Shown: positions 4,361 through 34,418 of the stretch, in pieces
How positions within the stretch are numbered: the first letter of the stretch is position 1
Layout: every line of letters starts with the position of its first letter
Assembly: GCA_963721685.1 (NCBI GenBank)
Contig: CAVRJJ010000005.1
Coordinates: forward strand, 1-37,942
DNA from: an uncultured bacterium
Lineage (GTDB): Bacteria; Patescibacteriota; Saccharimonadia; UBA4664; SCTI01
Length of the DNA stretch: 37,942 nt
Reading direction: 5' to 3'
Program-made: the position numbers and the translations under genes
The notes under the pieces: model-generated
What the model saw: only the letters and a program-made list of their open reading frames with translations
Databases searched by the model: none
Told to the model about the DNA's origin: nothing

Positions 4361-4391
4361 CGAATAATAGTAGCAAAAATAGCGCTTTAGC

Positions 4392-6808: not shown

Positions 6809-6895
6809 TGGCTTATTGTACCATCCACTTAATTAATGCCGATATGGGAGGAGTATATTCATGCCCAAGCAATGATTATTGCAGTTTAGTATTTG

Positions 6896-6951
6896 TAGGA
6901 TACTATTTCTTGGTTAACTTTTGATTAAATGAGCTTAAGAATAGTATCCTA
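6896..6951. repeat. 15-bp-arm inverted repeat in the divergent promoter region between the M50 protease gene and rpmB
   Basis: TAGGATACTATT(T)CTT (6896..6911) pairs with AAGAATAGTATCCTA (6937..6951): 12 bp, a 1-nt bulge, then 3 bp, with a 25-nt AT-rich loop. Confidence 0.5.
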
Positions 6952-7077
6952 GGAACACTATTTGGTGAAATTGAAGTAGGTTTGGGAGTATGGACATTTG
7001 CTTGCAAGAGTCTGCATCCTGGCTAGGAGGTTATTAGGTTTGACCTTCAACCTGATTTTTGCTACTATCACCTGGAT

Positions 7078-8670: not shown

Positions 8671-9903
8671 TTAAAAGTATACCAAACGATTATAAACCAC
8701 AATAGTGTTCGTGTTCAGACAGTTAGGCTGCCGGTTTGGAGCTGACTTTAGCCTTAACCGGATGCCATGGCCGGGGAGGTGTCGCTTACCGTATTGGATG
8801 AGGCCGCCAAAGCCAATAAGGACCACCATAAATACTACGAAACCGCCAATAAACGGCAGCAGCTCTATTAGGGTTAGAACCAACAGGCCCACGAACGCGT
8901 TGGCATACGGATTGGGGCGCCATTCGGCTTTGCCGCTTATCCATTCCCCAATTGCCAGCCCCACCCAAAAATGAGTCAAATAAATTGCAAGCGCGTATAA
9001 GCCCGCAGCTATCAACGCCAGCGGGAGTCCAACAAATGAAATCAACATAAGAATGATGAGTATGGGTGTGACCACCAAGCCCAGCACGCCCCATCCTAAA
9101 GCGGCTAAAGGACGCTCGGTAAGCTCAGAGGCCACCCCTAGCGGGAGATGCGGCACCAACCAAAGCAAGAGAGCCCCCACCAAGTAAATCGCGGCTAAGC
9201 TCCATATTGCCGCGAACACGGTATCGGCCACTTCATTCTTGTTAGATTCTTGTGCGGGACGGTTGTGGCTGGTTTCCCCTAGTACCTGGGCACCACTTTG
9301 CCGATGAATAGTAGCACTGCCGTGATAATTGAGGTCGCCACCTATAACTGCCGTTTTTTCCAGGGTGAGATCGTCTGTGCCAACGTACACGTCCTTACCC
9401 AGCTTGCCGCTCACTACAACTTTGCTGGCACCCCCCGCTACACTTTTAGCCACAGCGCCGCGAATGACTGCTCTGGATGAAGCAAAATTAAGCCCGCCGG
9501 AAATTACCGTATCACCTTCTATAGTCATATTTTGCGCGAACACCGTTACGCCCCCGCCGATCGCGGGGCTGGTTATCCTAACGGTTTGTCCGGCAGTGCG
9601 GACTCCCCCAGTCACTGTCCCGCTAATAAACACGTCTTGGCCCGCCGCGAAGACAGATCCATTAACCGTGCCTTTAATTTCTACTGATGATCCGGCGGCG
9701 TAAACATCACCATTTACCGTTCCTTCAATGAGGACCTGGTCTCCGGCAATATATAAGTCATCATCAACGGTACGGCCCGCCTCTACGGTGGCGCTGCCTT
9801 CATCCGAAGCAACCACTGCCGCGTAGCCAGCCGTTGGCACAATTACCGCAACAAGCAGAGCAAATACTAACAATAGTTTTTTACCCACTAGATAGCTCCG
9901 CAT
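8671..9903 (-). CDS. exported or membrane protein with bactofilin-like (polymer-forming cytoskeletal) beta-helical repeats and a polytopic C-terminus
   Basis: 410 aa. It has a signal-like N-terminus (KKLLLVFALLVAVIVPTAGYA). Repeated units follow: G-D-V-Y-A-A-G-x-x-V-x-I-x-G-T-V-x-G. The last ~170 aa are hydrophobic helices. Confidence 0.55.
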   Translation of the reverse strand: MRSYLVGKKLLLVFALLVAVIVPTAGYAAVVASDEGSATVEAGRTVDDDLYIAGDQVLIEGTVNGDVYAAGSSVEIKGTVNGSVFAAGQDVFISGTVTGGVRTAGQTVRITSPAIGGGVTVFAQNMTIEGDTVISGGLNFASSRAVIRGAVAKSVAGGASKVVVSGKLGKDVYVGTDDLTLEKTAVIGGDLNYHGSATIHRQSGAQVLGETSHNRPAQESNKNEVADTVFAAIWSLAAIYLVGALLLWLVPHLPLGVASELTERPLAALGWGVLGLVVTPILIILMLISFVGLPLALIAAGLYALAIYLTHFWVGLAIGEWISGKAEWRPNPYANAFVGLLVLTLIELLPFIGGFVVFMVVLIGFGGLIQYGKRHLPGHGIRLRLKSAPNRQPNCLNTNTIVVYNRLVYF

Positions 9904-9977
9904 CTCATTCTCCGCCTAATACTAGTAGTATCTCCCTTAGCAAAGCCAACTACAAGCATAAGAAATGTGAAGCTTTA

Positions 9978-10700: not shown

Positions 10701-12058
10701 ACCTCTTCAAGATGAGTCATCTTACCCAATTGCTTACGCAAGGCAAGCATGGCGGTATAGGTGGGCACCAGATAGCCAATACCGCCCTCCGGAAGTTGAG
10801 CAATAAACTGGTTCAACGCTGCTTCAAGCTCAGATTCGGACGCTTCCACCATAATATCGGCATACTTGAGACGCAGGGCCATATCATTTGAGCGCAAACC
10901 GGAAACCGTAATGCGGTGGTCTTGGGGCATTAGCTCTTCGAAAGCGACGTCCCACAGCCAAGATATATCCCGGCCATCCGCGAAGTTATCGTTGATGCAA
11001 ATCAATAAATGCTGTTGTTGTTTCTGCAACAAGAAAGTTTGAATTATCTGATTAAACCCGGTTGGGTTCTTTACCAGCAACAGGTATATCGTTTTGTTTT
11101 GTATGGTTATCTTTTCAACCCGGCCAAAGGCCGCTTCGACGCTAGCTAATGAACGTCCGACGCCCATGTGGGCAAATCCCGCGTCATGGGCAACACTGGC
11201 GGCCGCTAACGCGTTGTAAATATTGTAGAGTCCTGGAAGTTGGAGGTGGACTGTTAGCTCGTGCTTAGGCACGGTGATCGTTGCCTCTGCCGACTGATCT
11301 CGCAGCTTAACATGGTGCGCGGAGTAGATGGGTTTTGGACGGGCAAAATGCCCTTTTGTACAACTATAGTGCCCAATGTGGCCAAAAAAGTTTTTGGTGT
11401 ATACCAGTGTTCTACCACACTTCGGACAGGAGTGGGAATCGGATGTTACATCATGAGCAAGCTTTGCGGACTCAGCGTCCTCAACCCCAAAAAATACGGT
11501 TCTCTCTGGATCGGCGAAGCTGGCCAAGCCAGCCACCAACGGGTCGTCGGCATTAAGAAATAACTTAGCCTCCGTAGCAGCGATGCCCTTGCCAATTAGC
11601 TTAGCAGTCGTATCGAGTTCTCCATAACGGTCAAGCTGGTCGCGAAAGATATTAAGCACCACAATCACCCGCGGCTGCACCAGCTCGCAAACCGCCGGCA
11701 TAGCTGCCTCATCGACTTCGAAGAGCCCCATCGTCTGGGTATACCCTTTTGAAAGGTTAGCGTGGTCGATTAAAGCCGAAACCACGCCTCGGCTTAAGTT
11801 TGAGCCGGCAGTATTTACCACCAGCCTCTCCCCCGCGTCGGTTAATACCTTTGCCAGCATCTTGGCAGTAGTAGTTTTGCCGTTGGTGCCGGTAACAATA
11901 ATACTGCCATGCGGAATCTGGCGGGCCAGCTTGCGGCCGATTGTTGGATCAATCCGCTCCGCCACTAGGCCCGGGAGAGCCGACCCCCCTCCTTTGCCCA
12001 GCAAACGGCTCAGAATAATAATAAACTTTCCGATAGTAATGGTGACAATTAGCGGCAT
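10691..12058 (-). CDS. murT: lipid II isoglutaminyl synthase, Mur-ligase-like subunit MurT
   Basis: 455 aa. It has the Mur-ligase P-loop VTGTNGKTTTAKM, a Cys-rich ribbon CPKCGRTLVY..GHYSC, and a C-terminal DISWLWDV (DUF1727-like) region. Confidence 0.85.
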   Translation of the reverse strand: MPLIVTITIGKFIIILSRLLGKGGGSALPGLVAERIDPTIGRKLARQIPHGSIIVTGTNGKTTTAKMLAKVLTDAGERLVVNTAGSNLSRGVVSALIDHANLSKGYTQTMGLFEVDEAAMPAVCELVQPRVIVVLNIFRDQLDRYGELDTTAKLIGKGIAATEAKLFLNADDPLVAGLASFADPERTVFFGVEDAESAKLAHDVTSDSHSCPKCGRTLVYTKNFFGHIGHYSCTKGHFARPKPIYSAHHVKLRDQSAEATITVPKHELTVHLQLPGLYNIYNALAAASVAHDAGFAHMGVGRSLASVEAAFGRVEKITIQNKTIYLLLVKNPTGFNQIIQTFLLQKQQQHLLICINDNFADGRDISWLWDVAFEELMPQDHRITVSGLRSNDMALRLKYADIMVEASESELEAALNQFIAQLPEGGIGYLVPTYTAMLALRKQLGKMTHLEEVWR

Positions 12059-12067
12059 AAGCTTATT

Positions 12068-12940
12068 CTACCTTATTGATAGTAAGGTTAAGCCGAGGAT
12101 TACTACCAACGCACCGATTAATTGATAACGCGATAAGCGCTCCTTGAAGAAGTACAAGGCGAGCGCTACGGTTATAAGGGGTGAAACTGATGTTACCGGT
12201 GCCACAATCGCCACCAATGATGAAGAAAAACCGTAATTCACCAAAATGGTTCCAATAAAACCAAAAGCAGCGATTCCAATAATGGTTTTATTTATTGGCC
12301 TATATTTAGATGAAAAAAATGATTCTTTAGTAATAGTCATAAATGTTCCGACACCAAGAATGACAATGATACCCTGCGCCAACATTGAGTTTTGCCATCC
12401 TACCAGATGAACCAACTGGGCAAGGAAAAATAGCGATATTCCGATACAGATGGCTCCAACAAGTGCCCAGTAGACGGTAGGTTGACGCCAAAACCTTTTT
12501 TGCGGACGGTGTGTATCGTGACTAACCGAAGCCAACATGCCTCCCAAAACCAAGAAAAATACCGCGACAAGCTGAATTGGACGTAAGCGTTCGTGGAGAA
12601 AAACGATCGAAAGCAAGGCTGCGACAAGCGCATAAACGCTTACAAAAGGACTCGCCAAACAAACGGGACCGAGCTTAAAGGCATGAAATATGGCACGTTG
12701 CCCTAGAATAAGAAGCCCGCCAGTAAGCAATGCGGGTATAAGAGCCTCGCCAGAAAAATAAACCTTCCAGCCCATAATTACAAAAGCCCCTACAATAAGC
12801 GCCAGCATTACTACCCTGGTCCAGAATATTGCCCGTAGAACACTATAATTACGGGCGGCGTGGGCCGCAAAAAAATCACTGACGCCAAAACCTGCAGCCG
12901 CGCCAAGACCAGTTAATATACCTAGTGATAGATCAGACAC
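12068..12940 (-). CDS. DMT/EamA-family transporter
   Basis: About ten TM helices in two EamA-like halves. I start it at the in-frame GTG at 12940, which has GGAAAGG about 13 nt upstream. The track ORF 12068..13159 would otherwise run 210 nt into miaA. Confidence 0.7.
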   Translation of the reverse strand: MSDLSLGILTGLGAAAGFGVSDFFAAHAARNYSVLRAIFWTRVVMLALIVGAFVIMGWKVYFSGEALIPALLTGGLLILGQRAIFHAFKLGPVCLASPFVSVYALVAALLSIVFLHERLRPIQLVAVFFLVLGGMLASVSHDTHRPQKRFWRQPTVYWALVGAICIGISLFFLAQLVHLVGWQNSMLAQGIIVILGVGTFMTITKESFFSSKYRPINKTIIGIAAFGFIGTILVNYGFSSSLVAIVAPVTSVSPLITVALALYFFKERLSRYQLIGALVVILGLTLLSIR

Positions 12941-12947
12941 GAGTGTA

Positions 12948-13817
12948 TTATACCTTTCCAGCGACCTGCTTGATGAGGTTGGTTGCCTCGCCATGCGATT
13001 TGACCCATTCAATAGCAGTATTACGCTTAAACCAAGTGATTTGACGCTTAGCCAGTTGCCGCAAATGGAGGTTGATGAGGGCTTGAAGTTGAGCGACATT
13101 GCCTCCCTTTTGCCGGTATTCGAGGATTTCCCGGTACGGTGGTGTATTGAGCGGCTCAATCATACCGAATGTTGTTGCTAAAACATCAGTTTCTTCGAGA
13201 ATATTTTTTTCAAACCATTGCTTAGTACGCTCCACGATACGCTGTTCAATCATTTCAATGCCCGGGTTGAGGCCAATAATATAATAATTTTTCGGTATTT
13301 CACGGGGTTGGTATAGACTCTCTCCGGAACTGACTGCCCGCTCTAACCTGCGCCGATTGAATTGGTCGCTTGGATTAAGCTCTATCCCCTTTTCATCCAG
13401 TAAGACGCGCAATTGATCATCACTGAAGCCAGCCAGCCCCTGCTTCCCTCCTGCCGAGGACACCGGTCGGAAGGAAAAATCATAGAGTAACGCATCAATA
13501 TAAAGCCCGGAGCCGCCAACTATCATCGGCAAGTTGCCGCGGCCTTGAATATCCCTGATAAATTTAGTAGCCAAATGCTTAAAATCAACTACTGAAAACG
13601 GCTTGTCCGGGTTAACCACGTCAATCAGGTGATGCGGGACTATTTGCTGTTCGGCCAGGGTCGGCTTGGCGGTCCCTAAATCCATGCCGCGGTACACCGT
13701 CCGCGAGTCGGCGCAGATAATTTCACCCCTATACTGCTGGGCAATTTGGATAGCCAGGGCAGTTTTTCCACTGGCGGTCGGTCCGACAATAAAAATTACC
13801 GGAGCCGAATTAGACAT
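12948..13817 (-). CDS. miaA: tRNA dimethylallyltransferase
   Basis: From the ATG at 13817: MSNSAPVIFIVGPTASGKTALAIQIA..ICADSRTVYRGMDLGTAKP..HHLID. P-loop and the MiaA pattern. The longer track ORF start (13955) overlaps the upstream gene. Confidence 0.9.
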   Translation of the reverse strand: MSNSAPVIFIVGPTASGKTALAIQIAQQYRGEIICADSRTVYRGMDLGTAKPTLAEQQIVPHHLIDVVNPDKPFSVVDFKHLATKFIRDIQGRGNLPMIVGGSGLYIDALLYDFSFRPVSSAGGKQGLAGFSDDQLRVLLDEKGIELNPSDQFNRRRLERAVSSGESLYQPREIPKNYYIIGLNPGIEMIEQRIVERTKQWFEKNILEETDVLATTFGMIEPLNTPPYREILEYRQKGGNVAQLQALINLHLRQLAKRQITWFKRNTAIEWVKSHGEATNLIKQVAGKV

Positions 13818-14214
13818 CGTCACCTTCCAGTCCCAGCATCGATTGCTTCCCCGGATCCGTTCCCGGCGGCCACCAGATAAGGGATTGGATATCCACCTTA
13901 TATTCCCCATCCACTTTAACGCCATCAGCCTCGAGGTCGCGTTTGTGGGCATCACGGCCGCCGCTGGTGTAACCGCCAGCTAAACCGCCCTGCTTATTCA
14001 CCACGCGCTGCCATGGCAAGTCTGGCGGTCCCCAGTGGGCAACCTGGCCGACAATCCTGGCTGAGCGCGGCGACCCGCATAAGGCCGCGATCTGGCCATA
14101 GGTCATAACGCTCCCCTTAGGGATTTGCACCACCAGGTCGTAGACGTCTTGGGCAAACTGCCCGTCTGGACGTTCAGGTAAGACTTGAATGGGATGCCCG
14201 CTGCTTGATTTCAT
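13810..14214 (-). CDS. MGMT-family DNA-binding protein lacking the acceptor cysteine (alkyltransferase-like, ATL/YbaZ type)
   Basis: VYDLVVQIPKGSVMTYGQIA...PWQRVVNKQG. The sequence PWQRV stands where active MGMTs have PCHRV. The ATG at 14214 lies 41 nt inside the 3' end of thrS. Confidence 0.65.
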   Translation of the reverse strand: MKSSSGHPIQVLPERPDGQFAQDVYDLVVQIPKGSVMTYGQIAALCGSPRSARIVGQVAHWGPPDLPWQRVVNKQGGLAGGYTSGGRDAHKRDLEADGVKVDGEYKVDIQSLIWWPPGTDPGKQSMLGLEGDDV

Positions 14215-16030
14215 CTTGCACTTGGATAATAAAACGCTCAAACGACAGTTTCGGCTCACCATCGCCCAGGTCTTTGCGAATACGCGGGCTCACCTCGCCG
14301 GAGCTAACTTCCTGTTCGCCCACTACGATGGTGTAAGGTACCTTACCCATGCTGGCTAAACGGATTTTTTTTCCAACCGACTCGGAAGCGTCATCAATAT
14401 CCGCTCGTATGCCGGCTTTTTTCAACTGCAGTCGCATTTCTTTGGTTTTATCCTGGATTTCCGGAGCGTCACTTACCGTCAGCAAACGCACTTGTTCTGG
14501 CGACAACCACACCGGGAAGTTACCAGCCGTGTGCTCAATATAGATACTCAGGAACCGGTCGATTGAGCCCATGATCGCGGCGTGGATCATTACAATCCGT
14601 TCTTTTTCCCCGGCTTCGTTAATGCACGATAGGTCAAACCCTTCCGGTTGGTTAAAGTCGAGCTGGATGGTAGCTACCTGCCACTCCCGACCTATGGCGT
14701 CGCGGCCGATAAAATCAATCTTCGGGCCATAAAACGCCGCCTCACCAAGACCGTCAAGATAGTCTTCGCCAACCTTTTGCTCAATAATCGCCTTTATTTG
14801 GTTTTCGGCCGTGCCCCAAGCATCTGGTGATCCCGAATACGCATCCATGGCGTCAGGGTCATGCCGAGAAAATCGGACCTTTAGATTATCAAAGTTGAGC
14901 GTGCTATAGAACCGCTCCACGATGTTCCAAATTTTCAAAACCTCATCCTCAATCTGGCCGTTGCGGCAAAACACGTGCGCGTCATCCTGGGTAAAGGCCC
15001 GCACCCGGCTTAAGCCAAATAGCTCACCGGTCTGCTCGTCACGATAACAGGTGGTCGTTTCGCGGTAACGGACGGGCAGCTCCCGGTAGGAGCGGGGCCG
15101 GCCGGCATATATTTGGGTATGGTGCGGGCAGTTCATCGGCTTCATCGCGAATTCATGGCCTTCACGGGTAGTTATGCGGAAGAGGTCATCGGCAAACTTT
15201 GTCCAGTGGCCGCTAGCTATATAGGCATCTTTTTTAGTTATGTGGGGAATACTGACTTCCTGGTAATCATACTCATCCCGCATTTCCTGCACGAAATTGT
15301 CCAGTTGGCGCCGCAAAACCGCTCCCCTTGGAGTAAATAATGGTAGCCCAGGTCCAATGAGATCGGAAAAGGTAAATAAATCCAGCTCTTTGCCCAATTT
15401 TCGATGATCCCGCTTTTCGGCTTCAGCCTGTTGAGCTAGGTAATTGTTCAACTCCTCTTTTTCGGCAAATGCCACGCCATACACCCGCTGCATTTGAGGG
15501 TTTTCGGCCTTTCCGCGCCAGTAGGCACCAGACACCTTAGTAAGCTTGAAGGCTCCCGCCTGTTTAGTGGTTTCCAGGTGGCCACCGCGGCATAAATCGG
15601 TAAAACCGCCATTGGTATATAGGCTTACTGTTGTAATTTTTTCTGCATTGCCAATTCCCAGCTGCTCCCGGTCGATATCTTTGGCAACGGTAGTTCCGTG
15701 GGTTTTAAGATCACTTAACAGCTCCACTTTATAAGGCTGCTTGCTCTCATCGAAGTAGGCGACAGCTTTTTCAATATCCATATCCTGGTGCTCAAACCGG
15801 TCGCCCGCCTTGATTATTTCCTTCATCTTAGCTTCGATTCGGGGGAGGTCTTCGGGCGTTATGGTTTCCGTTAAGTCGAAATCGTAATAGAAACCATTTT
15901 CAATAACCGGACCCACGCCGAATTTTACCCCCGGATAAAGCTCCTGGACGGCGGTCGCCAAGATATGTGCCATCGAATGGCGCATTGCATGCAAATCTTT
16001 CTTATTTATATCGGTCTTCTCCTCAGCCAT
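14174..16030 (-). CDS. thrS: threonine--tRNA ligase (no N-terminal TGS domain)
   Basis: 618 aa. Editing-site HSMAHIL sits at residues 18-24, followed by GPVIENGFYYDFDL. The class II core motifs (FAMKPMNCPHH, TTCYRDE, RVRAFTQDDAH) and the anticodon-binding C-terminus are present. Confidence 0.95.
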   Translation of the reverse strand: MAEEKTDINKKDLHAMRHSMAHILATAVQELYPGVKFGVGPVIENGFYYDFDLTETITPEDLPRIEAKMKEIIKAGDRFEHQDMDIEKAVAYFDESKQPYKVELLSDLKTHGTTVAKDIDREQLGIGNAEKITTVSLYTNGGFTDLCRGGHLETTKQAGAFKLTKVSGAYWRGKAENPQMQRVYGVAFAEKEELNNYLAQQAEAEKRDHRKLGKELDLFTFSDLIGPGLPLFTPRGAVLRRQLDNFVQEMRDEYDYQEVSIPHITKKDAYIASGHWTKFADDLFRITTREGHEFAMKPMNCPHHTQIYAGRPRSYRELPVRYRETTTCYRDEQTGELFGLSRVRAFTQDDAHVFCRNGQIEDEVLKIWNIVERFYSTLNFDNLKVRFSRHDPDAMDAYSGSPDAWGTAENQIKAIIEQKVGEDYLDGLGEAAFYGPKIDFIGRDAIGREWQVATIQLDFNQPEGFDLSCINEAGEKERIVMIHAAIMGSIDRFLSIYIEHTAGNFPVWLSPEQVRLLTVSDAPEIQDKTKEMRLQLKKAGIRADIDDASESVGKKIRLASMGKVPYTIVVGEQEVSSGEVSPRIRKDLGDGEPKLSFERFIIQVQDEIKQRASHSSLT

Positions 16031-16043
16031 GACTTACTTCTCC

Positions 16044-16262
16044 TTAATAAACAAAAAACACGCATAGACTTATGCGCGTTTGGACCCATTAATGCGGGCG
16101 GTTCCACCAAACTTCCTCCTGAGAACAAGAGGCTCTTGTGTGCCAATATAACGCCATTGGCGACGGGGCTACAGGGTCGTTACCTCCTGATGACTGCCCT
16201 ATTGAACTTTCAATGGCTTAATATTACCAGATTGACTGGATTTCCTCCACATCCAACGGTAC
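16044..16262 (-). promoter_or_regulatory. T-box riboswitch leader of thrS (antiterminator/terminator type)
   Basis: The minus strand reads AAGTTTGGTGGAACCGCCCG (16096..16114), the T-box sequence. The antiterminator is GTTTGG / 7-nt bulge TGGAACC / GCCC-loop-GGGT / CCAAAC. The overlapping terminator is ACGCGCATA-AGTC-TATGCGTGT plus TTTTTT (16053..16079). Stem III is ACAAG-AGCCT-CTTGT, and a basal stem pairs CCGTTGG with CCAATGG. Confidence 0.8.
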
Positions 16263-16293
16263 ACTTACGGTAATATTATTTTCGCGGAGTATC

Positions 16294-16977
16294 ATGGACT
16301 TCTTTAACGTTAATACTATCTTCTTTACAGTCCTTGGTTACGAGATGAGCTACCTTGAGTTCTTTGGTACTGTTTTTAATCTTGCCGCCATTATTTTTGC
16401 CGTTCGCAGCAATATCCTCACTTGGGCTTCTACGCTGGTGGCCGTGACCTTGTTTGCCTTTTTGTTTTACCAATTCGAGCTTTATTCAGACATGGTATTG
16501 CAAGCCTTTTACTTTGGAAGCGGCATTGCCGGTCTTTATATATGGTCTAAGCGCAGGAAAAGCGCGGTGATTACCGCCAAGCCAATAACCCGCAATACTG
16601 CCCTGCAGAATGTGAAGGTAGTTATTACGATTCTGCTTGGTACGGCAGCGCTTGGCAGCTTTATGTCCAATATTCATACCCTGCTTCCTGATTTATTCCC
16701 CAAGCCAGCCGCGTATCCCTATATTGACGCCTCCATCGCGGTCATGGCGGTGGTAGCCCAGCTGCAGCTGCTATTTCGTAAGTTTGAGAACTGGATGCTT
16801 TGGATATTTATGGACGCTATCGCGATTGGCGTGTACTACTCCAGAGGCATAAAATTAGTGGCACTCCTTTATGTCCTGTACTTTGTGATATCTATCCTCG
16901 GCCTTATCCAGTGGCGCAAGGAACTTCGCGGCCATAAGCAGCAAGTGTCCGCGTCCGCTAAGCCGATATCTTTATAG
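16294..16977 (+). CDS. pnuC: nicotinamide riboside transporter PnuC family
   Basis: 227 aa with 7-8 TM segments. The N-terminus YEMSYLEFFGTVFNLAAIIFAVRSNILTW and the central QFELYSDMVLQAFYF follow the PnuC pattern. Confidence 0.8.
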   Translation: MDFFNVNTIFFTVLGYEMSYLEFFGTVFNLAAIIFAVRSNILTWASTLVAVTLFAFLFYQFELYSDMVLQAFYFGSGIAGLYIWSKRRKSAVITAKPITRNTALQNVKVVITILLGTAALGSFMSNIHTLLPDLFPKPAAYPYIDASIAVMAVVAQLQLLFRKFENWMLWIFMDAIAIGVYYSRGIKLVALLYVLYFVISILGLIQWRKELRGHKQQVSASAKPISL

Positions 16978-27234: not shown

Positions 27235-27942
27235 TTAGTTCTGGGATTTGTCAGAGCGGTTTTCCGGCTCTTTGCGAGTTTGCTGGTCATGGCCGTCTTC
27301 AACAATAACTTCCTGGTCCTCGGCAACACCTTCCGGCAACTCGCCTTCAACAGCCGCGTCCAGCTCTTCCAGCTCTTCATCGGATCGTGGCGGCGTTACG
27401 GTAGCGACAAGGGTTTCCGGCGGCGTCAAAACTTCCACGTTTGAGGGAGTTTTCAGGTCGGCTACGGTAATATTCTTCTCAAAATCATCTAGCACGGAAA
27501 TATCAACTTCGATATTTTCAGGTAAATCAGCCGGTAAGGCCTCAACCTCTATGGTTTCAATTGGGCGGGTGAGTGTCCCCTCCTGTTGGTAAACGGCGGT
27601 TGACTCACCGACAATATGGATGGGAACTTCGGCCTTAATCTTCTCATCCATCCTAACCACCAGGAAATCAGCGTGAAGAATATGACCCGTCCGGCTATCC
27701 AGCTGGACATCATGAATAAGAGCATTGGTTTGCTTACCGTCATCTACCTTCAAACCGACAATCCGGTTGCCGCCGGCATGGGCATACGTCTGCTCCAGCT
27801 CTTTGGACACCACGCTCACCGCTTGGGATTTGGTTCCGTGCCCGTAAAGAACAGCCGGAGTGGTGCCGGCTTTCCGCAGACCACGGTTAGCTTTTCCCAG
27901 TACCTCACGGCTTTGCAATTTAATCGTCATTTTTTCGGCCAT
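27235..27942 (-). CDS. rplY: 50S ribosomal protein L25 / general stress protein Ctc form, with an acidic C-terminal extension
   Basis: From the ATG at 27942 (AGGAG RBS): MAEKMTIKLQSREVLGKANRGLRKAGTTPAVLYGHG..VQLDSRTGHILHADF. The acidic tail is typical of the long Ctc form. Confidence 0.88.
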   Translation of the reverse strand: MAEKMTIKLQSREVLGKANRGLRKAGTTPAVLYGHGTKSQAVSVVSKELEQTYAHAGGNRIVGLKVDDGKQTNALIHDVQLDSRTGHILHADFLVVRMDEKIKAEVPIHIVGESTAVYQQEGTLTRPIETIEVEALPADLPENIEVDISVLDDFEKNITVADLKTPSNVEVLTPPETLVATVTPPRSDEELEELDAAVEGELPEGVAEDQEVIVEDGHDQQTRKEPENRSDKSQN

Positions 27943-27978
27943 AATATCTCCTGCTTGAATCACACACGGTAACCCAAG

Positions 27979-27999
27979 AAAAAAAGCATCTCTGGATGC
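27979..27999 (-). terminator. short hairpin plus U7 tract inside the rplY leader (possible attenuator)
   Basis: The minus strand reads GCATC-CAGA-GATGC followed by TTTTTTT. It lies between the candidate promoter (28014..28042) and the rplY start codon, ending 37 nt upstream of the ATG. The stem has only 5 bp. Confidence 0.35.
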
Positions 28000-28013
28000 G
28001 TTACGTAAGAGCT

Positions 28014-28042
28014 ACTATACCTCAGGTTTACCAGATGAGCAA
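28014..28042 (-). promoter_or_regulatory. candidate rplY promoter (TTGCTC, 17-nt spacer, TATAGT)
   Basis: On the minus strand, TTGCTC is at 28037..28042 and TATAGT at 28014..28019, with a 17-nt spacer. Confidence 0.4.
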
Positions 28043-28057
28043 GTTGAACCGATAGCA

Positions 28058-28153
28058 CCAATACGTTCTTCCCTTGTCTACACATATCGTCTGATACCAT
28101 CCTGATCGGATAATATCAGAATGCATAGTAGTCAAATAGAGAAGAAGGATTGG
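28058..28153. ncRNA. conserved multi-helix element, copy 1 (unassigned family; strand undetermined)
   Basis: Shares the invariant blocks ACACATATCGTCTGA (28080..28094) and TCAGAATGCATAGT (28116..28129) with the copy at 31866..31948. Its nested helices are CCAAT/ATTGG, TTCTTC/GAAGAA, TTGTCTAC/GTAGTCAA and TCTGATA/TATCAGA. Confidence 0.55.
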
Positions 28154-28278
28154 TACCATAAGTAGTTAACACGGTTGGCGCGCCGTGGTAGAACTTTTAT
28201 GGCATGTCGTCACCCGGCGTAAGCCATGGTGACCATGCTCAGAAAAGTTGCTCTCCGGTAAGCCTACCCATCAACAGC

Positions 28279-28608
28279 TTAACGCTTTTTGCTAAACCCG
28301 GTTCGCTTACGGCTGATATAGCGGTGGAATTCGGCAATCTCATCGGCTGAAATGGAGCCCATGGAGGCAAACTTAGCCTCTTCGGCTGAGCGGAGGTCGG
28401 TTTTCGAGCGCTTGGCGGTTTTACCACTGGTGGCAACGGTGGCTAAAACCGGCAGCGAACATTCATGACAGTTAAGCTGGACAAAGCAGTATTGGTTCAA
28501 TTCACCCAGGTAGCGGATATCATCAAGGAAATAGCTGGTATCGCAGGAGGGGCACTTATAAAATTCCTGCAGGTTATTGATAATGTCCTGCAAATGCCTT
28601 CGACTCAT
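28279..28608 (-). CDS. hypothetical zinc-ribbon protein
   Basis: From the ATG at 28608: MSRRHLQDIINNLQEFYKCPSCDTSYF...LNCHECSLPV (CxxC...CxxC), with a basic C-terminal tail. The longer track start (28698) overlaps the upstream gene. Confidence 0.5.
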   Translation of the reverse strand: MSRRHLQDIINNLQEFYKCPSCDTSYFLDDIRYLGELNQYCFVQLNCHECSLPVLATVATSGKTAKRSKTDLRSAEEAKFASMGSISADEIAEFHRYISRKRTGFSKKR

Positions 28609-28675
28609 AAGTATCCCCTTCGTTACCCTCCTATTATATCTGGTGTACGAGCGGTTTGGCAATCGCTTGTTCAGC

Positions 28676-29722
28676 TTAAACAGCGCGATGGCGGCCAATA
28701 CGAATCAGGCTGGCAATTAAGACCACCATTGTAGCGAGCAGTACAATCAACGCCACCAGTTTGGTGAAGCTTTGGGCCTGGAGCGCGATTACCCCAAAGG
28801 TAACCGCTAGCAGATAGAGCGATAAGACTGCGCTGCGCTGGGAAAAACCAGCCTTAAGCAATAAATGATGCAAATGCTCCCGGTCGGAAGTGAAGGGGTG
28901 TACCCGGCGCCGCAATCGGCGGACAACCGCCCACATGGCGTCAATGATGGTAAATCCTAATACCAAAGAAAGCGTTGCTAATTTTCCACCTGAATATATG
29001 GCCAGCATCGCCAGGGTCATGCCCAGGAAATACGCCCCGCTATCCCCCATGAAAATTTTCGCCGGAAAGAAGTTGAATGGCAGAAATCCTAACGCCGAAC
29101 CAGCCAAAATAATCGCCAGAAGGGCCACCAGGGGCTGGTCTACTTGAAGGGCCAGTGTGAAGAGAATAAGGGCCGCAATGGCGGAAACACCTCCCGCCAG
29201 CCCGTCCAGTCCATCGAGAAAGTTAACGGTGTTAACCATGCCGACCATCCATAAAATACTTAAGGCATTGGCAATCGGGGTTATATGAAAATGAATACTC
29301 CCCCAGTCAACCGCGAACCGCCCGGCTGTGAGGTCAATAACTCCGCCAAACGGGTTGGTAATTGAAACAATGCCAATGCCGCCGGCTAAAACCACCCCAG
29401 CGGCCAATACCTGCCAAACGAGCCGCGTCCGCGCCTTCAACCCCCTTACATCATCAATAGCTCCCAGTACCGCCAGTATAGTCCCCCCAAGCAATAAGGC
29501 GGCCAGCTGGCGGCTCATAGGCATCAAAGAAAGCGTGGCTACTACAAAGCTGGCAAAGATGGCGAGGCCGCCTAAATAAGGGATGATCCGATTATCCAAG
29601 GCATGGGATTTAATGCCCGCCGGCTGCGCCACAATTTGGTAGCGCAATGCCAGCGTACGTACTAGCGGGGTTAGGAGCAATGCCAAACCAAAACTTAAAA
29701 CAAAAGCTACAAGGTAATTCAT
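28676..29722 (-). CDS. polyprenyl-phosphate N-acetylhexosamine-1-phosphate transferase (MraY/WecA/TagO family)
   Basis: 348 aa, polytopic. The motifs IDDVRGL, NTVNFLDGLDGLAGG and FMGDSGAYFLG are characteristic of this family. Confidence 0.85.
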   Translation of the reverse strand: MNYLVAFVLSFGLALLLTPLVRTLALRYQIVAQPAGIKSHALDNRIIPYLGGLAIFASFVVATLSLMPMSRQLAALLLGGTILAVLGAIDDVRGLKARTRLVWQVLAAGVVLAGGIGIVSITNPFGGVIDLTAGRFAVDWGSIHFHITPIANALSILWMVGMVNTVNFLDGLDGLAGGVSAIAALILFTLALQVDQPLVALLAIILAGSALGFLPFNFFPAKIFMGDSGAYFLGMTLAMLAIYSGGKLATLSLVLGFTIIDAMWAVVRRLRRRVHPFTSDREHLHHLLLKAGFSQRSAVLSLYLLAVTFGVIALQAQSFTKLVALIVLLATMVVLIASLIRIGRHRAV

Positions 29723-31422
29723 GAGCGGCGGGATTTGGCGGTAACATTAAAGCCAAGATAACGGCCCAGCATCAAGCGGGTCTGAGAATCAATCGCGGCC
29801 AATGCGTTAAACACAATGCCGGTAACCGGAAACAGCACCCATTGGGCAACCATCGCGAGACTGCGGCGGTGTCCGTAGCGGGACGGGCGGGGCGGCAGCG
29901 AAATAATACTAATCGATGCCATTACAAATAACCCGATAAGGGCAATGCTTTGAAGATGACTGGCAATTACCGGCAGCTCATGGGCCAATCCGTACTGGCT
30001 GAATTGGGGGTTCAGGAATAAGGGTAGCCATGCTACAAAAGTGATTAAAAGGACGGCAGTGGCCCAACTGACATGCCCTTCCAAAAGACGCCCCGTCTGG
30101 ACCAGCTTACTTCCCAGCGGAATCTTATTGTTACGGATGCAATTACGCACCACGTAACTAAAGTCGGATATGCCGTAAGCCCAGCGGCGCAACTGGATAT
30201 ATTGTGCCTTAAAGGTTTTAAAGTAGGTTTCCGCTAACACCGCGTCCTGGTAAATCGGGATATACAATGGAACCACCGCGTAATCACCGTTAAAAATAAA
30301 GTAACTGCGCCAAAACTGGTGGCCATCTTCAACCGGTGAAGTAACACTCCAGTAATCCGTTTCAATTAAAGCCCGAAGCGGTTGGGCGTGGGAGGAAAAA
30401 TTACGCAGCCGATGTGGGCGCATCATTTCCATTATCTGGAAGAATGAATTACCAGCGGCAATCACCCGCATCGGCGCCGGCGCATCCCAAATATTATTTA
30501 AAAACATAGGAATGGGCTGGTACGACTTATGAATACGGTTAGGGTCCAGCGCGTAGACGTAGGTGAGGTAAGAAAAATACTGGGTATCAGGCTTGTTATC
30601 AGCATCTAGAGTGGTCACCACAACCTGTTCGGGATCCATCCCATTTTTAATAATTTCCCGGGTCGCTTCCCGCGCAGCAAAGGTTATATTGGCGCCTTTG
30701 CCGCGCATTTCTCCGGGCAGGTTGTCGGGATGCATAATAGCGGCGGCATACCCGAAACGGCTGCCGTAAGACGCGATAAGGTCTTTCGCGGTTTGCTTCA
30801 CCTCGCCCCCCCCGCGCTCCTCATAAGCAATAACAACCATGATCCGCTCTGGCGGATAATCGGCTTCAAGTAATGCCTTAACCGTCGGCTCCAGTACCGT
30901 CCGCGATTCATTGTAGGTAGCGATAATTACCAAATGATGTATGTTATGGGGCAGCATGATTGCCGTTTGGTGCGCCTCGATCTCCTTTAATGTTGCCAGG
31001 TCGGAAAGCGCGTTCCGATAGATTGTACGCTGCTTAGCGCTGGACCTGCTCCAAAAAAAGCGGCGTTGGACCCGCGGATAACGGCGCAGCAAATCCTGAA
31101 TACGCCGGTCGGTGCTTTTAATTTGTTTTTGCGGGTCTTCGAGCCAGTTCAGACGCTCGCGCCAATTAACCGCCTGGTGGTGGCGCAAGCGGCGGAAACC
31201 CCGCACAAGATACGTGCTCATCCGCAAAGCTTTCATTAGCCAGTAAAGGTCGAAAGCGATAATAAAGTAGGAAATGTACACCGGTAGAAAGAAGCTTAAA
31301 ACAATTGGCCCCACCAGCAACGTCCAGGTAAGTAAGCCGGGAATAATTTCCAGTACCCGTATAAACCACCATTGGTCGGTTAAATATTTATACTTGGTTT
31401 TGGTCTGGACGGATTCGCTCAT
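29719..31422 (-). CDS. membrane-embedded family-2 glycosyltransferase (processive synthase-like)
   Basis: From the ATG at 31422, which forms an ATGA overlap with the upstream stop. It has N- and C-terminal TM helices, VIIATYNES, TLDADNKPD and a QLRRWAYG (QxxRW) motif. Confidence 0.8.
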   Translation of the reverse strand: MSESVQTKTKYKYLTDQWWFIRVLEIIPGLLTWTLLVGPIVLSFFLPVYISYFIIAFDLYWLMKALRMSTYLVRGFRRLRHHQAVNWRERLNWLEDPQKQIKSTDRRIQDLLRRYPRVQRRFFWSRSSAKQRTIYRNALSDLATLKEIEAHQTAIMLPHNIHHLVIIATYNESRTVLEPTVKALLEADYPPERIMVVIAYEERGGGEVKQTAKDLIASYGSRFGYAAAIMHPDNLPGEMRGKGANITFAAREATREIIKNGMDPEQVVVTTLDADNKPDTQYFSYLTYVYALDPNRIHKSYQPIPMFLNNIWDAPAPMRVIAAGNSFFQIMEMMRPHRLRNFSSHAQPLRALIETDYWSVTSPVEDGHQFWRSYFIFNGDYAVVPLYIPIYQDAVLAETYFKTFKAQYIQLRRWAYGISDFSYVVRNCIRNNKIPLGSKLVQTGRLLEGHVSWATAVLLITFVAWLPLFLNPQFSQYGLAHELPVIASHLQSIALIGLFVMASISIISLPPRPSRYGHRRSLAMVAQWVLFPVTGIVFNALAAIDSQTRLMLGRYLGFNVTAKSRRS

Positions 31423-31820
31423 ATAATCGCGGCAAACTCCGAGCCAATCACCAGGCACAATAGCCCAACCGCGACACTACCGATAAGCAGGAAGAAGCTG
31501 GTTAACCGGTTACGCTGGAAGCTTTGGGCTGCAAGAAGGGCATTAATAAAAGTAATAGCAAACCCAAAAGCGGCTATCCGATAGTTGTGGTACCACGGCC
31601 CCACCTGATCAAACCCGATCAAGTTTAAGTAGTGCACCGGCACCGGATAATCTACCTGGTGGACTTTCGCGAGCATATTTCCCAGCGTCAAAATATTGAT
31701 AAGCACGCTCAAGCCAAGCGCTACCAAAGAAACCGGATCGTGCATCATCGGATGTTCCCGCACATTACTCGGATGAAGGCGGCGGAGCGCCTGCAGTGGC
31801 GCGTTCAGATTCATGGCCAC
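31419..31820 (-). CDS. small membrane protein, function unknown (first gene of the glycan operon)
   Basis: 133 aa with 3-4 hydrophobic helices. The track start is the GTG at 31820. An in-frame ATG at 31812..31814 sits 7 nt downstream of a TGcTATAAT box, so a leaderless start is possible. Confidence 0.55.
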   Translation of the reverse strand: MAMNLNAPLQALRRLHPSNVREHPMMHDPVSLVALGLSVLINILTLGNMLAKVHQVDYPVPVHYLNLIGFDQVGPWYHNYRIAAFGFAITFINALLAAQSFQRNRLTSFFLLIGSVAVGLLCLVIGSEFAAII

Positions 31821-31829
31821 ATTATAGCA
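31821..31829 (-). promoter_or_regulatory. extended -10 promoter element TGcTATAAT
   Basis: The minus strand reads TGCTATAAT and directly abuts the GTG at 31820. The A of the ATG at 31814 is the seventh nucleotide after the hexamer. Confidence 0.4.
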
Positions 31830-31865
31830 CTTTTTATCTGGAAAAGGCTCATGGTGCCAGCTTTA

Positions 31866-31948
31866 GGCAGACACATGTTTCCCTGTTCCACACATATCGT
31901 CTGACTAGAAGTCAGAATGCATAGTGAACAATAGAAACAGTGTCTGCC
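31866..31948. ncRNA. conserved multi-helix element, copy 2 (unassigned family; strand undetermined)
   Basis: Its invariant blocks are ACACATATCGTCTGA (31890..31904) and TCAGAATGCATAGT (31912..31925). Its helices are GGCAGACAC/GTGTCTGCC, TGTTTC/GAAACA, TGTTC(C)AC/GTGAACA and TCTGACT/AGTCAGA. Confidence 0.55.
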
Positions 31949-31994
31949 TTGCCTAGTAATAACCCCTTATTTTTGGTTTAATACGACTAGTCTT

Positions 31995-32070
31995 GCCGAT
32001 GTAGCTCAGTTGGTAGAGCAATGCTTTCGTAAAGCAGAGGTCGGCGGTTCAAATCCGCCCATCGGCTCCA
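31995..32070 (+). tRNA. tRNA-Thr (anticodon CGU), discriminator U, CCA encoded
   Basis: GCCGATG TA GCTC AGTTGGTA GAGC A ATGCT TTCGTAA AGCAG AGGTC GGCGG TTCAAAT CCGCC CATCGGC T CCA. Confidence 0.9.
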
Positions 32071-32089
32071 GTTGCGACTGTTATGGCAT

Positions 32090-32163
32090 GCGGGTGTAGT
32101 TCATCGGTAGAACGCGACCTTCCCAAGGTTGAGAGAGGGGTTCGATTCCCCTCACCCGCTCCA
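32090..32163 (+). tRNA. tRNA-Gly (anticodon CCC), CCA encoded
   Basis: GCGGGTG TA GTTC ATCGGTA GAAC G CGACC TTCCCAA GGTTG AGAG AGGGG TTCGATT CCCCT CACCCGC T CCA. Confidence 0.9.
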
Positions 32164-32199
32164 GAGAAAGTGTCCAAGCTTGTCTTGGGCTTTTTCTCT
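32164..32199 (+). terminator. rho-independent terminator after the tRNA-Thr/tRNA-Gly pair
   Basis: GTCCAAG-CTTGT-CTTGGGC hairpin followed by TTTTT. The outer AGAGAAAG/CTTTTTCTCT pairing extends the stem. Confidence 0.6.
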
Positions 32200-32309
32200 G
32201 TATTGGTAAGAGGAAGCGAACCTCTAGGTTCGGTGGACGAGGAGCGCAGGAAAGCGCGGAAGCTTGCTTGTGCATTTTCCGAGCACCGCAGGGAGGTGGC
32301 GCCAGCCAC

Positions 32310-32328
32310 ATTCCCCTCACCCGCTCCA
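32310..32328 (+). repeat. 19-nt exact direct repeat of the tRNA-Gly 3' end (att-like scar)
   Basis: ATTCCCCTCACCCGCTCCA occurs at 32145..32163 (T-arm 3' half, acceptor and CCA of tRNA-Gly) and again at 32310..32328. Confidence 0.7.
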
Positions 32329-32353
32329 ATGCACGCGTTGCTACCTTCTCGGA

Positions 32354-32626
32354 TCAATAATGATACCGGCAGGCAATCACCCGCACCTCAGCATCGTCGG
32401 CTTGGTATACCAATCGGTGCTCCCCGTTAATTCGCCTAGACCACAGTCCGGCAAAATTGCCTCGCAGAGGTTCTGGCTTCCCAATACCAGAAAAGGGAGT
32501 TCTCAAGCATTCTGCAAGCAAGTGGTTGATTTTCTGAACCACTTTTTTATCAGTCTGTTGCCAATACTGATAATCTTCCCAGGCGTTACTAACAAACAGC
32601 AGTGTGCGCTTACTCACTAGCCTCAA
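32354..32626 (-). CDS. yoeB: YoeB/Txe-family toxin (mRNA interferase)
   Basis: FVSNAWEDYQYWQQTDKKVVQKINHLLAECLRTPFSGIGKPEPLRGNFAGLWSRRINGEHRLVY....VIACRYHY matches YoeB almost motif for motif. The likely start is the GTG at 32617, overlapping the yefM stop (GTGAGTAA). Confidence 0.85.
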   Translation of the reverse strand: MRLVSKRTLLFVSNAWEDYQYWQQTDKKVVQKINHLLAECLRTPFSGIGKPEPLRGNFAGLWSRRINGEHRLVYQADDAEVRVIACRYHY

Positions 32627-32876
32627 GATCTTCGAGTATTACTAACTTCGTTTGTTTCTTGCGAGATTGTGCCATCCCCTGTTCGATGCGCTTACGCATG
32701 GCCGGGCTCCGGCGCAAGTGTTCAGTTTCGGTCAGGCCGTTATACTCAGCCAAAGGTATGGCAACCACAGTTTCACCATCACTGCGAGTAATAAGCAGTG
32801 GATTCTGATCATTAATAATTTGATCAAAATACTTTTTGGTTTCTTTGCGAAAATCAGAAATGGATGTTATGTTCAT
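32610..32876 (-). CDS. yefM: YefM/Phd-family antitoxin
   Basis: 88 aa. ISDFRKETKKYFDQIINDQNPLLITRSDGETVVAIPLAEYNGLTETEHLLRS-like pattern. It lies directly upstream of and overlaps yoeB. Confidence 0.85.
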   Translation of the reverse strand: MNITSISDFRKETKKYFDQIINDQNPLLITRSDGETVVAIPLAEYNGLTETEHLRRSPAMRKRIEQGMAQSRKKQTKLVILEDLEASE

Positions 32877-32888
32877 GGCTGCTCCTAT

Positions 32889-32918
32889 TGTACGTAATAT
32901 TGTACTTAATTACGTACA
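32889..32918 (-). promoter_or_regulatory. putative YefM-YoeB operator (GTAC-core repeats at 12-bp spacing)
   Basis: TGTACG (32889), TGTACT (32901) and CGTACA (32913) start 12 bp apart, 13-42 nt upstream of the yefM ATG. The characterised yefM-yoeB operator uses TGTACA cores 12 bp apart (established knowledge). Confidence 0.45.
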
Positions 32919-32967
32919 GATAATCAACAGTTCGACAGGGATTACGAATAAACGTATGATTACTTAA

Positions 32968-33929
32968 ATGGTTACGGTAAAAGCACAGTCCCAGCAGATC
33001 ACGAATCATGTAGTCATGGTCAGTCCCGACCAGTTTGGCTTTAACCCGCAAACCGCGGAAAGTAATGTGTTTCAGCACGATTTCGAGGATCAAGGATATT
33101 CGCCTACGGACGTGCAGCGACGGGCACGTTCAGAATTTGACGACCATGGTTCAAACACTTCGGGACAACGGCATAACCGTCTCCGTACTGCCAAGCCCCG
33201 CTGGCGTTAATGTCCCGGACGCCGTTTTCCCCAATAACTGGTTTTCCCACCACCAGGATGGGAACGCTTATTGTATATCCCATGCTTACGGAAAACCGGC
33301 GGGCCGAACGCCAACCTGAGGCAGTGGCCAGCCTTTTAGAACACCTTGGGGCTAAGCCAGCAGAAATTATAGATTTAACCGCGCAAGAACTTAAAGGCAA
33401 CTTTTTAGAGGGCACCGGCAGCTTGGTATTAGACCGAGTACACAAGGTAGCCTTTGCCATGCAATCGCCCCGCACTACCACAGCGGCTCTGGAGTTATGG
33501 AGCAAAACCATGGGCTATGAACCATTTTTATTTCATGCTTACGACAAACATTCCCGGCCGCTTTATCACACCAATGTGTTCATGAATATTGGCGAAGGCT
33601 TCGCGGTTGCCTGTCCGGAGTCAATCGCTAGTGACGAAGAACGGCAAAGCTTCATCAGAAAGCTTGGATCGCTGGGTAAGGAGCTAATAGCCATTTCCCT
33701 TGATCAAGCCTACGGGTTCTGCGGCAATGTTCTTCAGCTGAAATCAAAAGATGGCTCAGCGAAGATCGTCCTTTCGGAAACCGCATTACACGCACTCTCC
33801 ACCCATCAGCGGGAACAACTCCGAAAGCACGGCCAATTAGTTACCATTGCGATCCCAACCATTGAAGCTGTCGGCGGTGGCGGGGTGAGGTGTATGATGG
33901 CGGAGATATTTCCACCTAGCCCCCGGTAA
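32968..33929 (+). pseudogene. amidinotransferase-fold protein (arginine-deiminase-related / CtlX-like), two frameshifts
   Basis: Three consecutive frames together give one protein. The pieces are MVTVKAQSQQITNHVVMVSPDQFGFNPQTAESNVFQ..ARSEFDD, then MVQTLRDNGITVSVLPSP..PDAVFPNNWFSHHQDG, then TLIVYPMLTENRRAER...AVGGGGVRCMMAEIF (catalytic Cys motif). The frame shifts lie near 33140 and 33262. Confidence 0.7.
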
Positions 33930-33938
33930 GCTTCTCTC

Positions 33939-34418
33939 TCATAACCTTAGAAATGTGGCTGGCAGCCCGCAAGCTTGGGCGGCTTTTGCTTCATTGTTGA
34001 ACGCTTTAATTTGTCCAGGATCGGTCGTGAACACATAATTTATAGCATTTTCCCAATCGCACTGCATGTTTTCACACTTAATGATTGTGCGCATCAATTC
34101 AATCGCTGACTGGTTGGCTTCGCCATACATCCGAACGGTTTTTTCGCCCAACCGACTTGATAACCTATGGTAGATAAGATTGTGTTGCGAGGTAATTTTT
34201 CCCGTGGTATTACCGCTAATACCACTTCCAACCGTATCTTTTTCCACAACGACGACCTTCAGCCCAGCCCGCTTTAGCAAATAAGCCGTGGTTAATCCAG
34301 CTATGCCGGCTCCCACAATAGCCACATCTACCTGGATCTCTTCTGCAAGTTTAGGGTAAGCGGCGCTAGAAGTGTTAGCAATCAAATATGACTGTTCTTG
34401 ATCGGGAAGAGTTAACAT
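33939..34418 (-). pseudogene. FAD-dependent oxidoreductase, N-terminal fragment only
   Basis: 159 aa with the dinucleotide fold VAIVGAGIAGLTTAYLLKRAGLKVVVVEKD. Full-length relatives are several hundred aa. This ORF stops 10 nt from the end of the convergent gene, so the C-terminal part is absent. Confidence 0.55.

Follow-up and report, generated by a model that had tools for sequence, protein, structure and literature searches.

The DNA analysed here, a stretch of 37,942 nucleotides referred to as the window and derived from Ca. Saccharimonadia (TM7, candidate phyla radiation or CPR), contains two intergenic hairpins with identical internal blocks and differing stems. A preliminary description had interpreted the pair as a structure with conserved loops and covarying stems and had denied that it was a mobile-element copy, which raises the question of what kind of object these hairpins are and how they came to their sites. 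We refer to the structure they share as hairpin A, to a second hairpin next to its first copy as hairpin B, and to loci from related genomes by L numbers. The structural features are as follows:

28058..28153, plus strand (the rRNA sense of the related 23S copies): hairpin A copy 1, from sequence, folds and model matches of 90 and 83.5 bits
28080..28094, plus strand: 5' core block ACACATATCGTCTGA, repeated exactly at 31890
28116..28129, plus strand: 3' core block TCAGAATGCATAGT, repeated exactly at 31912
28173..28268, plus strand: hairpin B, the second arm, with a basal stem, conserved blocks and a long variable stem, from the fold
28175-28189, plus strand: hairpin B block TTGGCGCGCCGTGGT, exact in the second arm of the L010 23S helix-79 insertion
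28254-28264, plus strand: hairpin B block TCCGGTAAGCC, exact in the second arm of the same insertion
28036..28282, no strand assigned: the whole Y-shaped unit (possible closing helix, hairpin A, 19-nt linker, hairpin B), from folds
31866..31948, plus strand: hairpin A copy 2, from sequence, folds and model matches of 93.6 and 84.1 bits

Both hairpin A intervals match the sequence quoted in the preliminary description, and the two core blocks, of 15 and 14 nt, are identical at 28080/31890 and 28116/31912. The compensatory differences reported there are likewise present in the lower stem (TTCTTC/GAAGAA in copy 1, TGTTTC/GAAACA in copy 2) as well as in the apical stem (ATA/TAT versus ACT/AGT), and the outermost stems indeed differ, with CCAAT/ATTGG closing copy 1 and GGCAGACAC/GTGTCTGCC closing copy 2; the layout drawn for copy 1 is correct overall, except that its 3' internal loop reads ATAGA and not ATA. 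The ACACATATCGTCTGA block comprises the asymmetric internal loop and the first part of the apical helix. Written in the rRNA sense, this near-invariant loop is 5'-CAUAUCG / 5'-AUGCAUAG, with a UCUG/CAGA helix adjoining it. The A module of copy 2 (approximately 31875-31939) is nested inside the unrelated 9-bp stem GGCAGACAC/GTGTCTGCC, and its site is without hairpin B. No further exact copies of ACACATATCGTCTGA and TCAGAATGCATAGT occur within the 38-kb window. A lone 15-mer repeat in 38 kb is not significant, whereas two collinear blocks within two hairpins are. Each window copy, read on either strand, folds more stably than its shuffled versions (z = -4.3 to -7.4; 0 of 200 shuffles equal), and the covariance model matches the hairpin A copies with E-values of 1e-22 to 1e-28. 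Hairpin A is a genuine structure with a conserved loop and covarying stems.

The statement that the element belongs to no named RNA family agrees with our comparison to Rfam 15, in which only RNase P RNA and tRNAs were matched in the window at gathering thresholds; at E-values of up to 10 across 27800-32300 the hairpins drew only microRNA-precursor matches, which at 21-23 bits against cut-offs of 71-73 are spurious. When the loops were compared by eye with consensus features of the kink-turn, the hairpin ribozyme, the hammerhead and integron attC sites, none fitted. The scan for intrinsic terminators reports neither hairpin, and no T-run follows either of them on either strand. The base of hairpin B, GCGCCGUGGUAG, resembles the loop E strand of E. 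coli 5S rRNA; this candidate was rejected, as there is no 5S match at E-values of up to 10 and the lineage's own 5S differs at this position.

Five copies of hairpin A are known: the two in the window, one in the 23S-5S spacer of L001, and one each in the 23S genes of L001 and L010. The exact-core pattern CATATCGTCTGA-N(3-33)-TCAGAATGCAT, scanned over 185,579 species genomes, occurs at one locus, L001, which belongs to the metagenome-assembled genome (MAG) that also contains L003; a slightly shorter core pattern gave only a chance match inside a coding region among 241 million metagenome contigs, and no core match was found in viral contigs (three patterns) or phage genomes. Such patterns are too strict, as the 23S copies carry TCTGT/ACAGA cores, so that the size of the family is underestimated. 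The L001 spacer copy lies 7 nt upstream of the 5S gene in the rRNA sense and is nested in an extra stem, CTGAAAGC/GCTTTCAG, while the equivalent 23S-5S spacer position of L010 holds a plain hairpin; CATATCGTCTG is found exactly in both the L001 spacer copy and the L010 23S copy. A search of related DNA with a covariance model, as the preliminary description had proposed, here built from three copies, found the fourth copy inside the L001 23S gene, and the fifth lies in the equivalent 23S insertion of the IMPDH-23S-5S locus of L010. The two 23S copies (L001 2197-2285, L010 8563-8651) are part of a 305-nt insertion at LSU model position ~2238, which we place at the tip of 23S helix 79. The 23S of L013 has the extended helix base seen in L001 and L010 with a different interior. 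All rRNA-borne copies are oriented as the window plus strand. No additional A copy was present in a total of ~170 kb that covers the window and related DNA and comes from some seven Saccharimonadia genomes, and model matches of 12-19 bits at L003 457-531, L005 936-1044, L014 903-968 and in L016/L017 were rejected as other hairpins without the core.

In order to assess covariation, the five copies (two from the window, two from L001, one from L010) were aligned to the model. Standard pairs account for 91.5% of the pair cells and changes on both sides are seen in 13 of the 31 pairs, which upholds the earlier claim of conserved loops with covarying stems. None of 500 shuffles reaches the observed values, and partners slid by 1-3 columns pair at only 36-56%. 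The 24 core columns are 88-100% identical, with 21-24 of 24 the same in every pair of the five copies; variable stem columns are 33-80% identical across pairs of copies. Copy 1 and the L001 spacer copy agree in 80% of the variable stem columns, as against 51% for copies 1 and 2, which have all 24 core columns and 23 of 45 stem columns in common. The middle helix differs in all five copies, and the lower helix has in every copy a pyrimidine-rich 5' strand and a purine-rich 3' strand.

Stems outside the core are almost purely Watson-Crick on both strands, a pattern that fits the upkeep of complementarity in the DNA at least as well as RNA-level selection. That all pairs are Watson-Crick, as had been stated, holds for the plus strand; reading the minus strand adds several G.U pairs. 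We considered the minus strand as the RNA strand, where copies 1 to 3 fold better, but this gain has its origin in the conserved core (UAUG/UAUG with G.U pairs). The better fold is no evidence for the strand, because it is seen equally in the L010 copy, whose transcription as part of 23S runs in the plus sense. The preliminary description left the strand undecided within the window, and we agree: fold stability decides nothing.

The interval 28058-28153 turned out to be incomplete as a delineation of the whole element, a homologous second hairpin being present at 28173-28268. Its blocks TTGGCGCGCCGTGGT and TCCGGTAAGCC are collinear and similarly spaced in the L010 insertion, and the long stems between them are unrelated yet paired. 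With nhmmer, positions 21-226 of the L010 insertion aligned to window 28064-28266 at E=2e-5 when A and B were used together; hairpin B alone reached E=0.02. On these alignments, copy 1 and hairpin B are the two arms of one unit, which is homologous to the rRNA insertion. The window unit adopts a Y-shaped fold, as the rRNA insertion does, with -86 and -100 kcal/mol on the two strands (z = -5.7 and -8.0), and the insertions themselves fold with z = -10.7 (L001) and -12.3 (L010). The unit fills the gap from the stop codon of a 109-aa zinc-ribbon gene (28279-28281, minus) to the rplY promoter, whose -35 element may be overlapped by the closing helix that the fold predicts. So far, three modules can be distinguished, namely the A core, the B base and the B apex.

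We then turn to the corresponding sites in relatives. The window has a gene order in common with MAG GCA_036379755.1, consisting of a 131-aa gene, two glycosyltransferases, the 109-aa zinc-ribbon protein, rplY, nrdR and a PF05635 protein, and the L25 proteins of the two are 80% identical. Hairpin A is absent at the orthologous rplY-upstream site from all five relatives compared (L003, L005, L007, L009, L017) and at the orthologous tRNA-Thr/131-aa-gene site from all three compared there (L003, L009, L017). These sites hold instead unrelated palindromes, the B-apex motif in either orientation, or nothing. The B-apex motif, GCATGCAACCTGCGTYAGCAAGGGGCT (~30 nt), forms the apex of hairpin B within the 23S insertion of L010 and recurs in the hairpins upstream of rplY in L007 and L009 (E ~1e-3 to 1e-4), where it lies inside unrelated stems in opposite orientations. 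At this one locus, a segment of ~45 nt at the apex is inverted between L007 (3817-3910) and L009 (9866-9940) within unrelated perfect stems, as if the loop had been turned round or the segment had inserted in either direction.

The patchy occupation of sites, the inverted B-apex and the closer similarity of copy 1 to the L001 spacer copy together indicate that modules are shuffled among the rRNA insertion, the rRNA spacer and intergenic sites. In this respect hairpin A acts as an insertion-like, dispersed element and not as a regulator tied to one gene. The assertion that hairpin A is not a mobile-element copy is not supported, because variable presence, which the preliminary description itself had named as speaking against it, was found: hairpin A is missing at orthologous sites of five relatives, its copies occur in non-orthologous places (the 23S-5S spacer and the 23S helix-79 insertion), and copy 1 has more in common with a spacer copy from a different genome (80%) than with copy 2 (51%). 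Of the two signs of mobile-element termini it had listed, variable presence among relatives was seen and target-site duplications were not.

The explanation we favour, and hold with moderate confidence, is that hairpin A is a module of a lineage-specific and modular palindromic family in Ca. Saccharimonadia which resembles the intervening sequences (IVS) of some bacterial 23S rRNA genes and spreads as DNA into hairpin tips. It builds on the copies and their homology, on covariation and nesting, on the patchy distribution and on the occurrence of a module in both orientations. Members would sit at hairpin tips where an extra autonomous stem-loop is tolerated, that is, at the expanded tip of 23S helix 79, in the 23S-5S spacer just 5' of 5S, and in intergenic spacers by promoters. 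Modules would be copied or swapped between hairpin tips at the DNA level, since they lie in differing orientations to transcription, and transcription from the neighbouring promoters probably misses at least copy 2. The asymmetric loop together with the UCUG/CAGA helix is probably the recognition site of a putative trans-acting protein, which might either mobilise the module enzymatically or, as a nuclease, remove it from precursor rRNA, and the stems would be required only to remain complementary. At its present site, copy 1 with hairpin B probably separates the glycosyltransferase operon from rplY as an incidental insulator or structured 3' end, and copy 2 is probably a spacer between two divergent promoters. 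A bolder version, in which A and B are the cis parts of an undescribed CPR mobile element that inserts into or swaps between hairpin tips, is recognised at its loop by a dedicated protein and stays unspliced in rRNA, strikes us as improbable; if it were true, rRNA expansion segments and intergenic hairpins would use one pool of modules.

Hallmarks of known transposition were looked for at the copies, and no terminal inverted repeats, target-site duplications or precise pair of filled and empty sites were found. The outermost stems differ between copies (CCAAT/ATTGG, GGCAGACAC/GTGTCTGCC, CTGAAAGC/GCTTTCAG), and there is no flanking direct repeat. A classical MITE was rejected on the lack of terminal inverted repeats and target-site duplications; copies are dispersed and variably present as those of a MITE would be (two in the window, two in L001, one in L010), in low number. 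The 38-kb window, which is part of a contig spanning at least 466 kb, encodes no transposase, integrase or homing endonuclease, and comparison of 34 of its ORFs with Pfam and NCBIfam gave no transposase or mobile-element enzyme.

The genes next to the two window copies are served by three promoters:

28014..28042, minus strand: rplY promoter TTGCTC-N17-TATAGT (-35 at 28042-28037, -10 at 28019-14), 15 nt beyond the foot of hairpin A
31821..31829, minus strand: extended -10 TGcTATAAT, serving the 131-aa/glycosyltransferase operon and separated by 36 nt from the foot of copy 2
31974..31982, plus strand: extended -10 TGgTTTAAT of tRNA-Thr, between copy 2 and the tRNA gene (31995)

The rplY promoter motif is also present upstream of rplY in L003 and L005, and a strict consensus promoter scan does not report it; the minus-strand end of copy 1 had correctly been placed 15 nt upstream of its -35 (TTGCTC 28042-28037). 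The TGnTATAAT of the 131-aa operon is kept in L003, L007, L009 and L017, and L003 has TGaTTTAAT upstream of tRNA-Thr. Lying between two divergent extended -10 promoters, copy 2 is probably upstream of both and outside both neighbouring transcripts. The flanks of copies 1 and 2 have no promoter or terminator sequence in common.

This setting bears on the main alternative, which we regard as rather unlikely: hairpin A (and B) would be a functional RNA, a protein- or RNA-binding module of the 23S helix-79 expansion in the rRNA sense, whose non-rRNA copies are expressed as leaders or as RNAs of their own and act as decoys, assembly or processing signals or regulators for the same partner. Deep stem divergence beside invariant loops, as seen in the two copies of one genome and across all five, is less expected after a recent insertion of selfish DNA and suits a long-lived functional RNA. 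In the orthologous 23S copies of L001 and L010 the structure has survived numerous compensated changes under vertical descent in a transcribed RNA, all five A copies are oriented alike to the nearest stable-RNA gene (23S, 5S, tRNA-Thr), and the pyrimidine-rich 5' and purine-rich 3' strands of the lower stem in every copy point the same way. However, copy 2 stands upstream of the tRNA-Thr extended -10, between the divergent promoters and probably outside the tRNA transcript, copy 1 is antisense to both adjacent genes, and the two share no promoter or terminator in their flanks; moreover, the B-apex module occurs in both orientations at one locus, relatives dispense with the element at these sites, and the variable stems are almost without G.U pairs.

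Long palindromes of unrelated sequence are found in 4 of 5 relatives at the rplY-upstream site and in 3 of 4 at the tRNA-Thr/131-aa site, among them a 24-bp perfect inverted repeat around 15 nt at the tRNA-Thr site of L003 (443-525), 25-bp arms around ~105 nt at that of L017 (6173-6327) and 19-bp arms upstream of rplY in L007. Such replacement would follow if the sites need any long hairpin or cruciform, be it as terminator, 3'-end stabiliser, supercoil sink or insulator, with the shared cores stemming from common descent or gene conversion of the rRNA copy and the stems renewed by template switching; the nearly perfect Watson-Crick complementarity on both strands agrees with this, and the loop inversion between L007 and L009 is the type of event expected of DNA palindromes. 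We nevertheless consider it improbable, as it leaves unexplained both the absence of any change in 29 core nucleotides beside stems that are ~50% diverged and the presence of the same core inside 23S rRNA. Nor is a hairpin required, given that L017 has only 43 nt between the 109-aa gene and rplY, with no element, and L009 nearly no spacer at the tRNA-Thr site, and no U-tract follows the hairpins. The L017 palindrome at the tRNA-Thr site contains ATATCG...TGCATA, possibly a degenerate A core, for which the covariance model gave no support.

5S rRNA is the RNA partner of L25, one copy adjoins a 5S gene, copy 1 adjoins rplY and the unit is homologous to an rRNA segment, so that an RNA regulating the adjacent genes in cis comes to mind, such as an L25 leader or an rRNA mimic for autoregulation, as in ribosomal-protein leaders that mimic rRNA sites; this is highly improbable and contradicted by position and strand, as the unit lies upstream of the conserved rplY promoter, outside the leader, in the rRNA sense it is antisense to rplY, hairpin A is not kept at the locus, being absent from five relatives including those with the same promoter, rplY of L017 begins only 43 nt after the upstream gene, copy 2 sits beside unrelated genes, and no 5S-like or leader family matches at E-values of up to 10.

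Returning to the reading as an IVS-like palindromic element, comparison with known systems shows where hairpin A agrees with them and where it departs. The IVS of Salmonella, Yersinia, Coxiella, Leptospira and others are stem-loops of ~100 to several hundred nt at the tips of 23S helices, and the L001 and L010 copies likewise reside within an insertion at a 23S helix tip. Insertions and window unit are, by their fold z-scores, extended self-contained stem-loops of this kind, and their distribution is sporadic (L013 has a different interior, and A is absent at orthologous intergenic sites). Unlike classical IVS, which occupy helices 9, 25 and 45, the L001/L010 insertion is in helix 79, and both window copies are intergenic without flanking rRNA; we know of no IVS with homologous copies outside rRNA genes. 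IVS are excised by RNase III without religation, leaving a fragmented 23S. They occur sporadically in related organisms and have been considered selfish or subject to horizontal transfer (PMC11270868; PMC4990558).

CPR 23S genes often carry insertions (PMC9297842). For Saccharibacteria, the account of Tsurumaki et al. (2024, PMC11270868) gives 64 of 66 rRNA insertions as 250 bp or shorter and as lacking group I and II introns and homing endonucleases, and presents short, ORF-less, non-intron insertions as typical of the rRNA of this lineage and uncharacterised. The insertions of L001 and L010 come from the same lineage and are the same class of object; in the main text of that study, an internal structure, copies outside rRNA and the helix-79 site are not described (PMC11270868). 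A limited literature search found no report of copies of such rRNA insertions outside rRNA genes.

Intergenic hairpin repeats of ~35-150 nt, such as REP/BIME/REPIN, ERIC, Correia and the Rickettsia palindromic elements, resemble the present family in that orthologous sites may or may not carry them and in that both orientations occur. Insertion even into RNA and protein genes is seen for the Rickettsia palindromic elements. These repeats are high-copy and conserved lengthwise or at their ends, whereas hairpin A is low-copy, its ends are not conserved and its conservation is concentrated in asymmetric internal loops; unlike transposase-mobilised repeats, it has no partner transposase within the 38-kb window. 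REP/REPIN, which are mobilised by RAYT, ~20-40 nt long, high-copy and marked by a terminal GTAG, were rejected for an element of 80-96 nt and low copy number in which only TAG is conserved, inside the 3' core block. Fungal mitochondrial double-hairpin elements and GC clusters are small mobile elements of one or two hairpins found in intergenic regions and rRNA variable regions; being organellar and unrelated in sequence, they offer an analogy of behaviour only.

At least one rRNA insertion of the Saccharibacteria type is thus built from modules that are also found in intergenic DNA of related genomes, which provides a handle on how rRNA insertions arise, spread, and are processed out of or kept in rRNA. 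Hairpin A also offers a defined RNA/DNA motif with strong covariation for a search for its binding partner. Should the modules indeed pass from one hairpin tip to another, rRNA expansion segments of bacteria with reduced genomes would have a simple way to grow.

Several further observations were made along the way. The L001 23S gene (1298-4789) has additional insertions, of 176 nt near model position 285 and of ~65 nt near 312. The 23S of L013 (~12000-16900) contains a LAGLIDADG endonuclease ORF and therefore probably carries an intron. The rplY leader of the window has a terminator-like hairpin at 27986-27999 (minus), GCATCCAGAGATGC followed by TTTTTTTCTT, between the -10 and the ATG at 27942, which could be an attenuator; the rplY leaders of L003 and L005 have no obvious counterpart. 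The probable ATG of the 131-aa gene (31814, minus) comes only 6 nt after TGcTATAAT, so that the first gene of this operon may be leaderless, and the same arrangement is seen in L003, L007, L009 and L017. The 109-aa protein (28279-28608, minus) has CPSC...CHEC motifs, is zinc-ribbon-like with a basic tail and matches no Pfam or NCBIfam family; by eye it is ~97% identical to its L003 homologue, far above the value for L25 (80%). The plus-strand segment 26008-26487 is syntenic in most relatives, including L003 and L017, which are there without hairpin A or the whole unit.

Elsewhere in the window, 32164-34418 appears decayed: after tRNA-Gly there is ~1 kb without a convincing gene, followed by a DDAH/CtlX-like ORF (33210-33929) that lacks ~70 N-terminal residues and by an FAD oxidoreductase fragment (33939-34418) comprising 159 aa of the N-terminus. 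Further long intergenic hairpins, with no relation to A or B, are located at 874-936 (26-nt arms), 4415-4445 (a 15-nt near-perfect palindrome beside RNase P RNA) and 6887-6960 (21-nt arms). The motif CTTAGCCGAATAATAGTAGCA occurs in four copies (4355-4375, 6405-6425, 9296-9316, 9910-9930), one of which directly adjoins RNase P RNA (3958-4358, minus) at its 5' end; the minus-strand reading of the motif, TGCTACTATTATTCGG, has the look of an extended -10 promoter, and the motif resembles TGCTATTAT/TGCTATCAT before rplY in L007 and L009.
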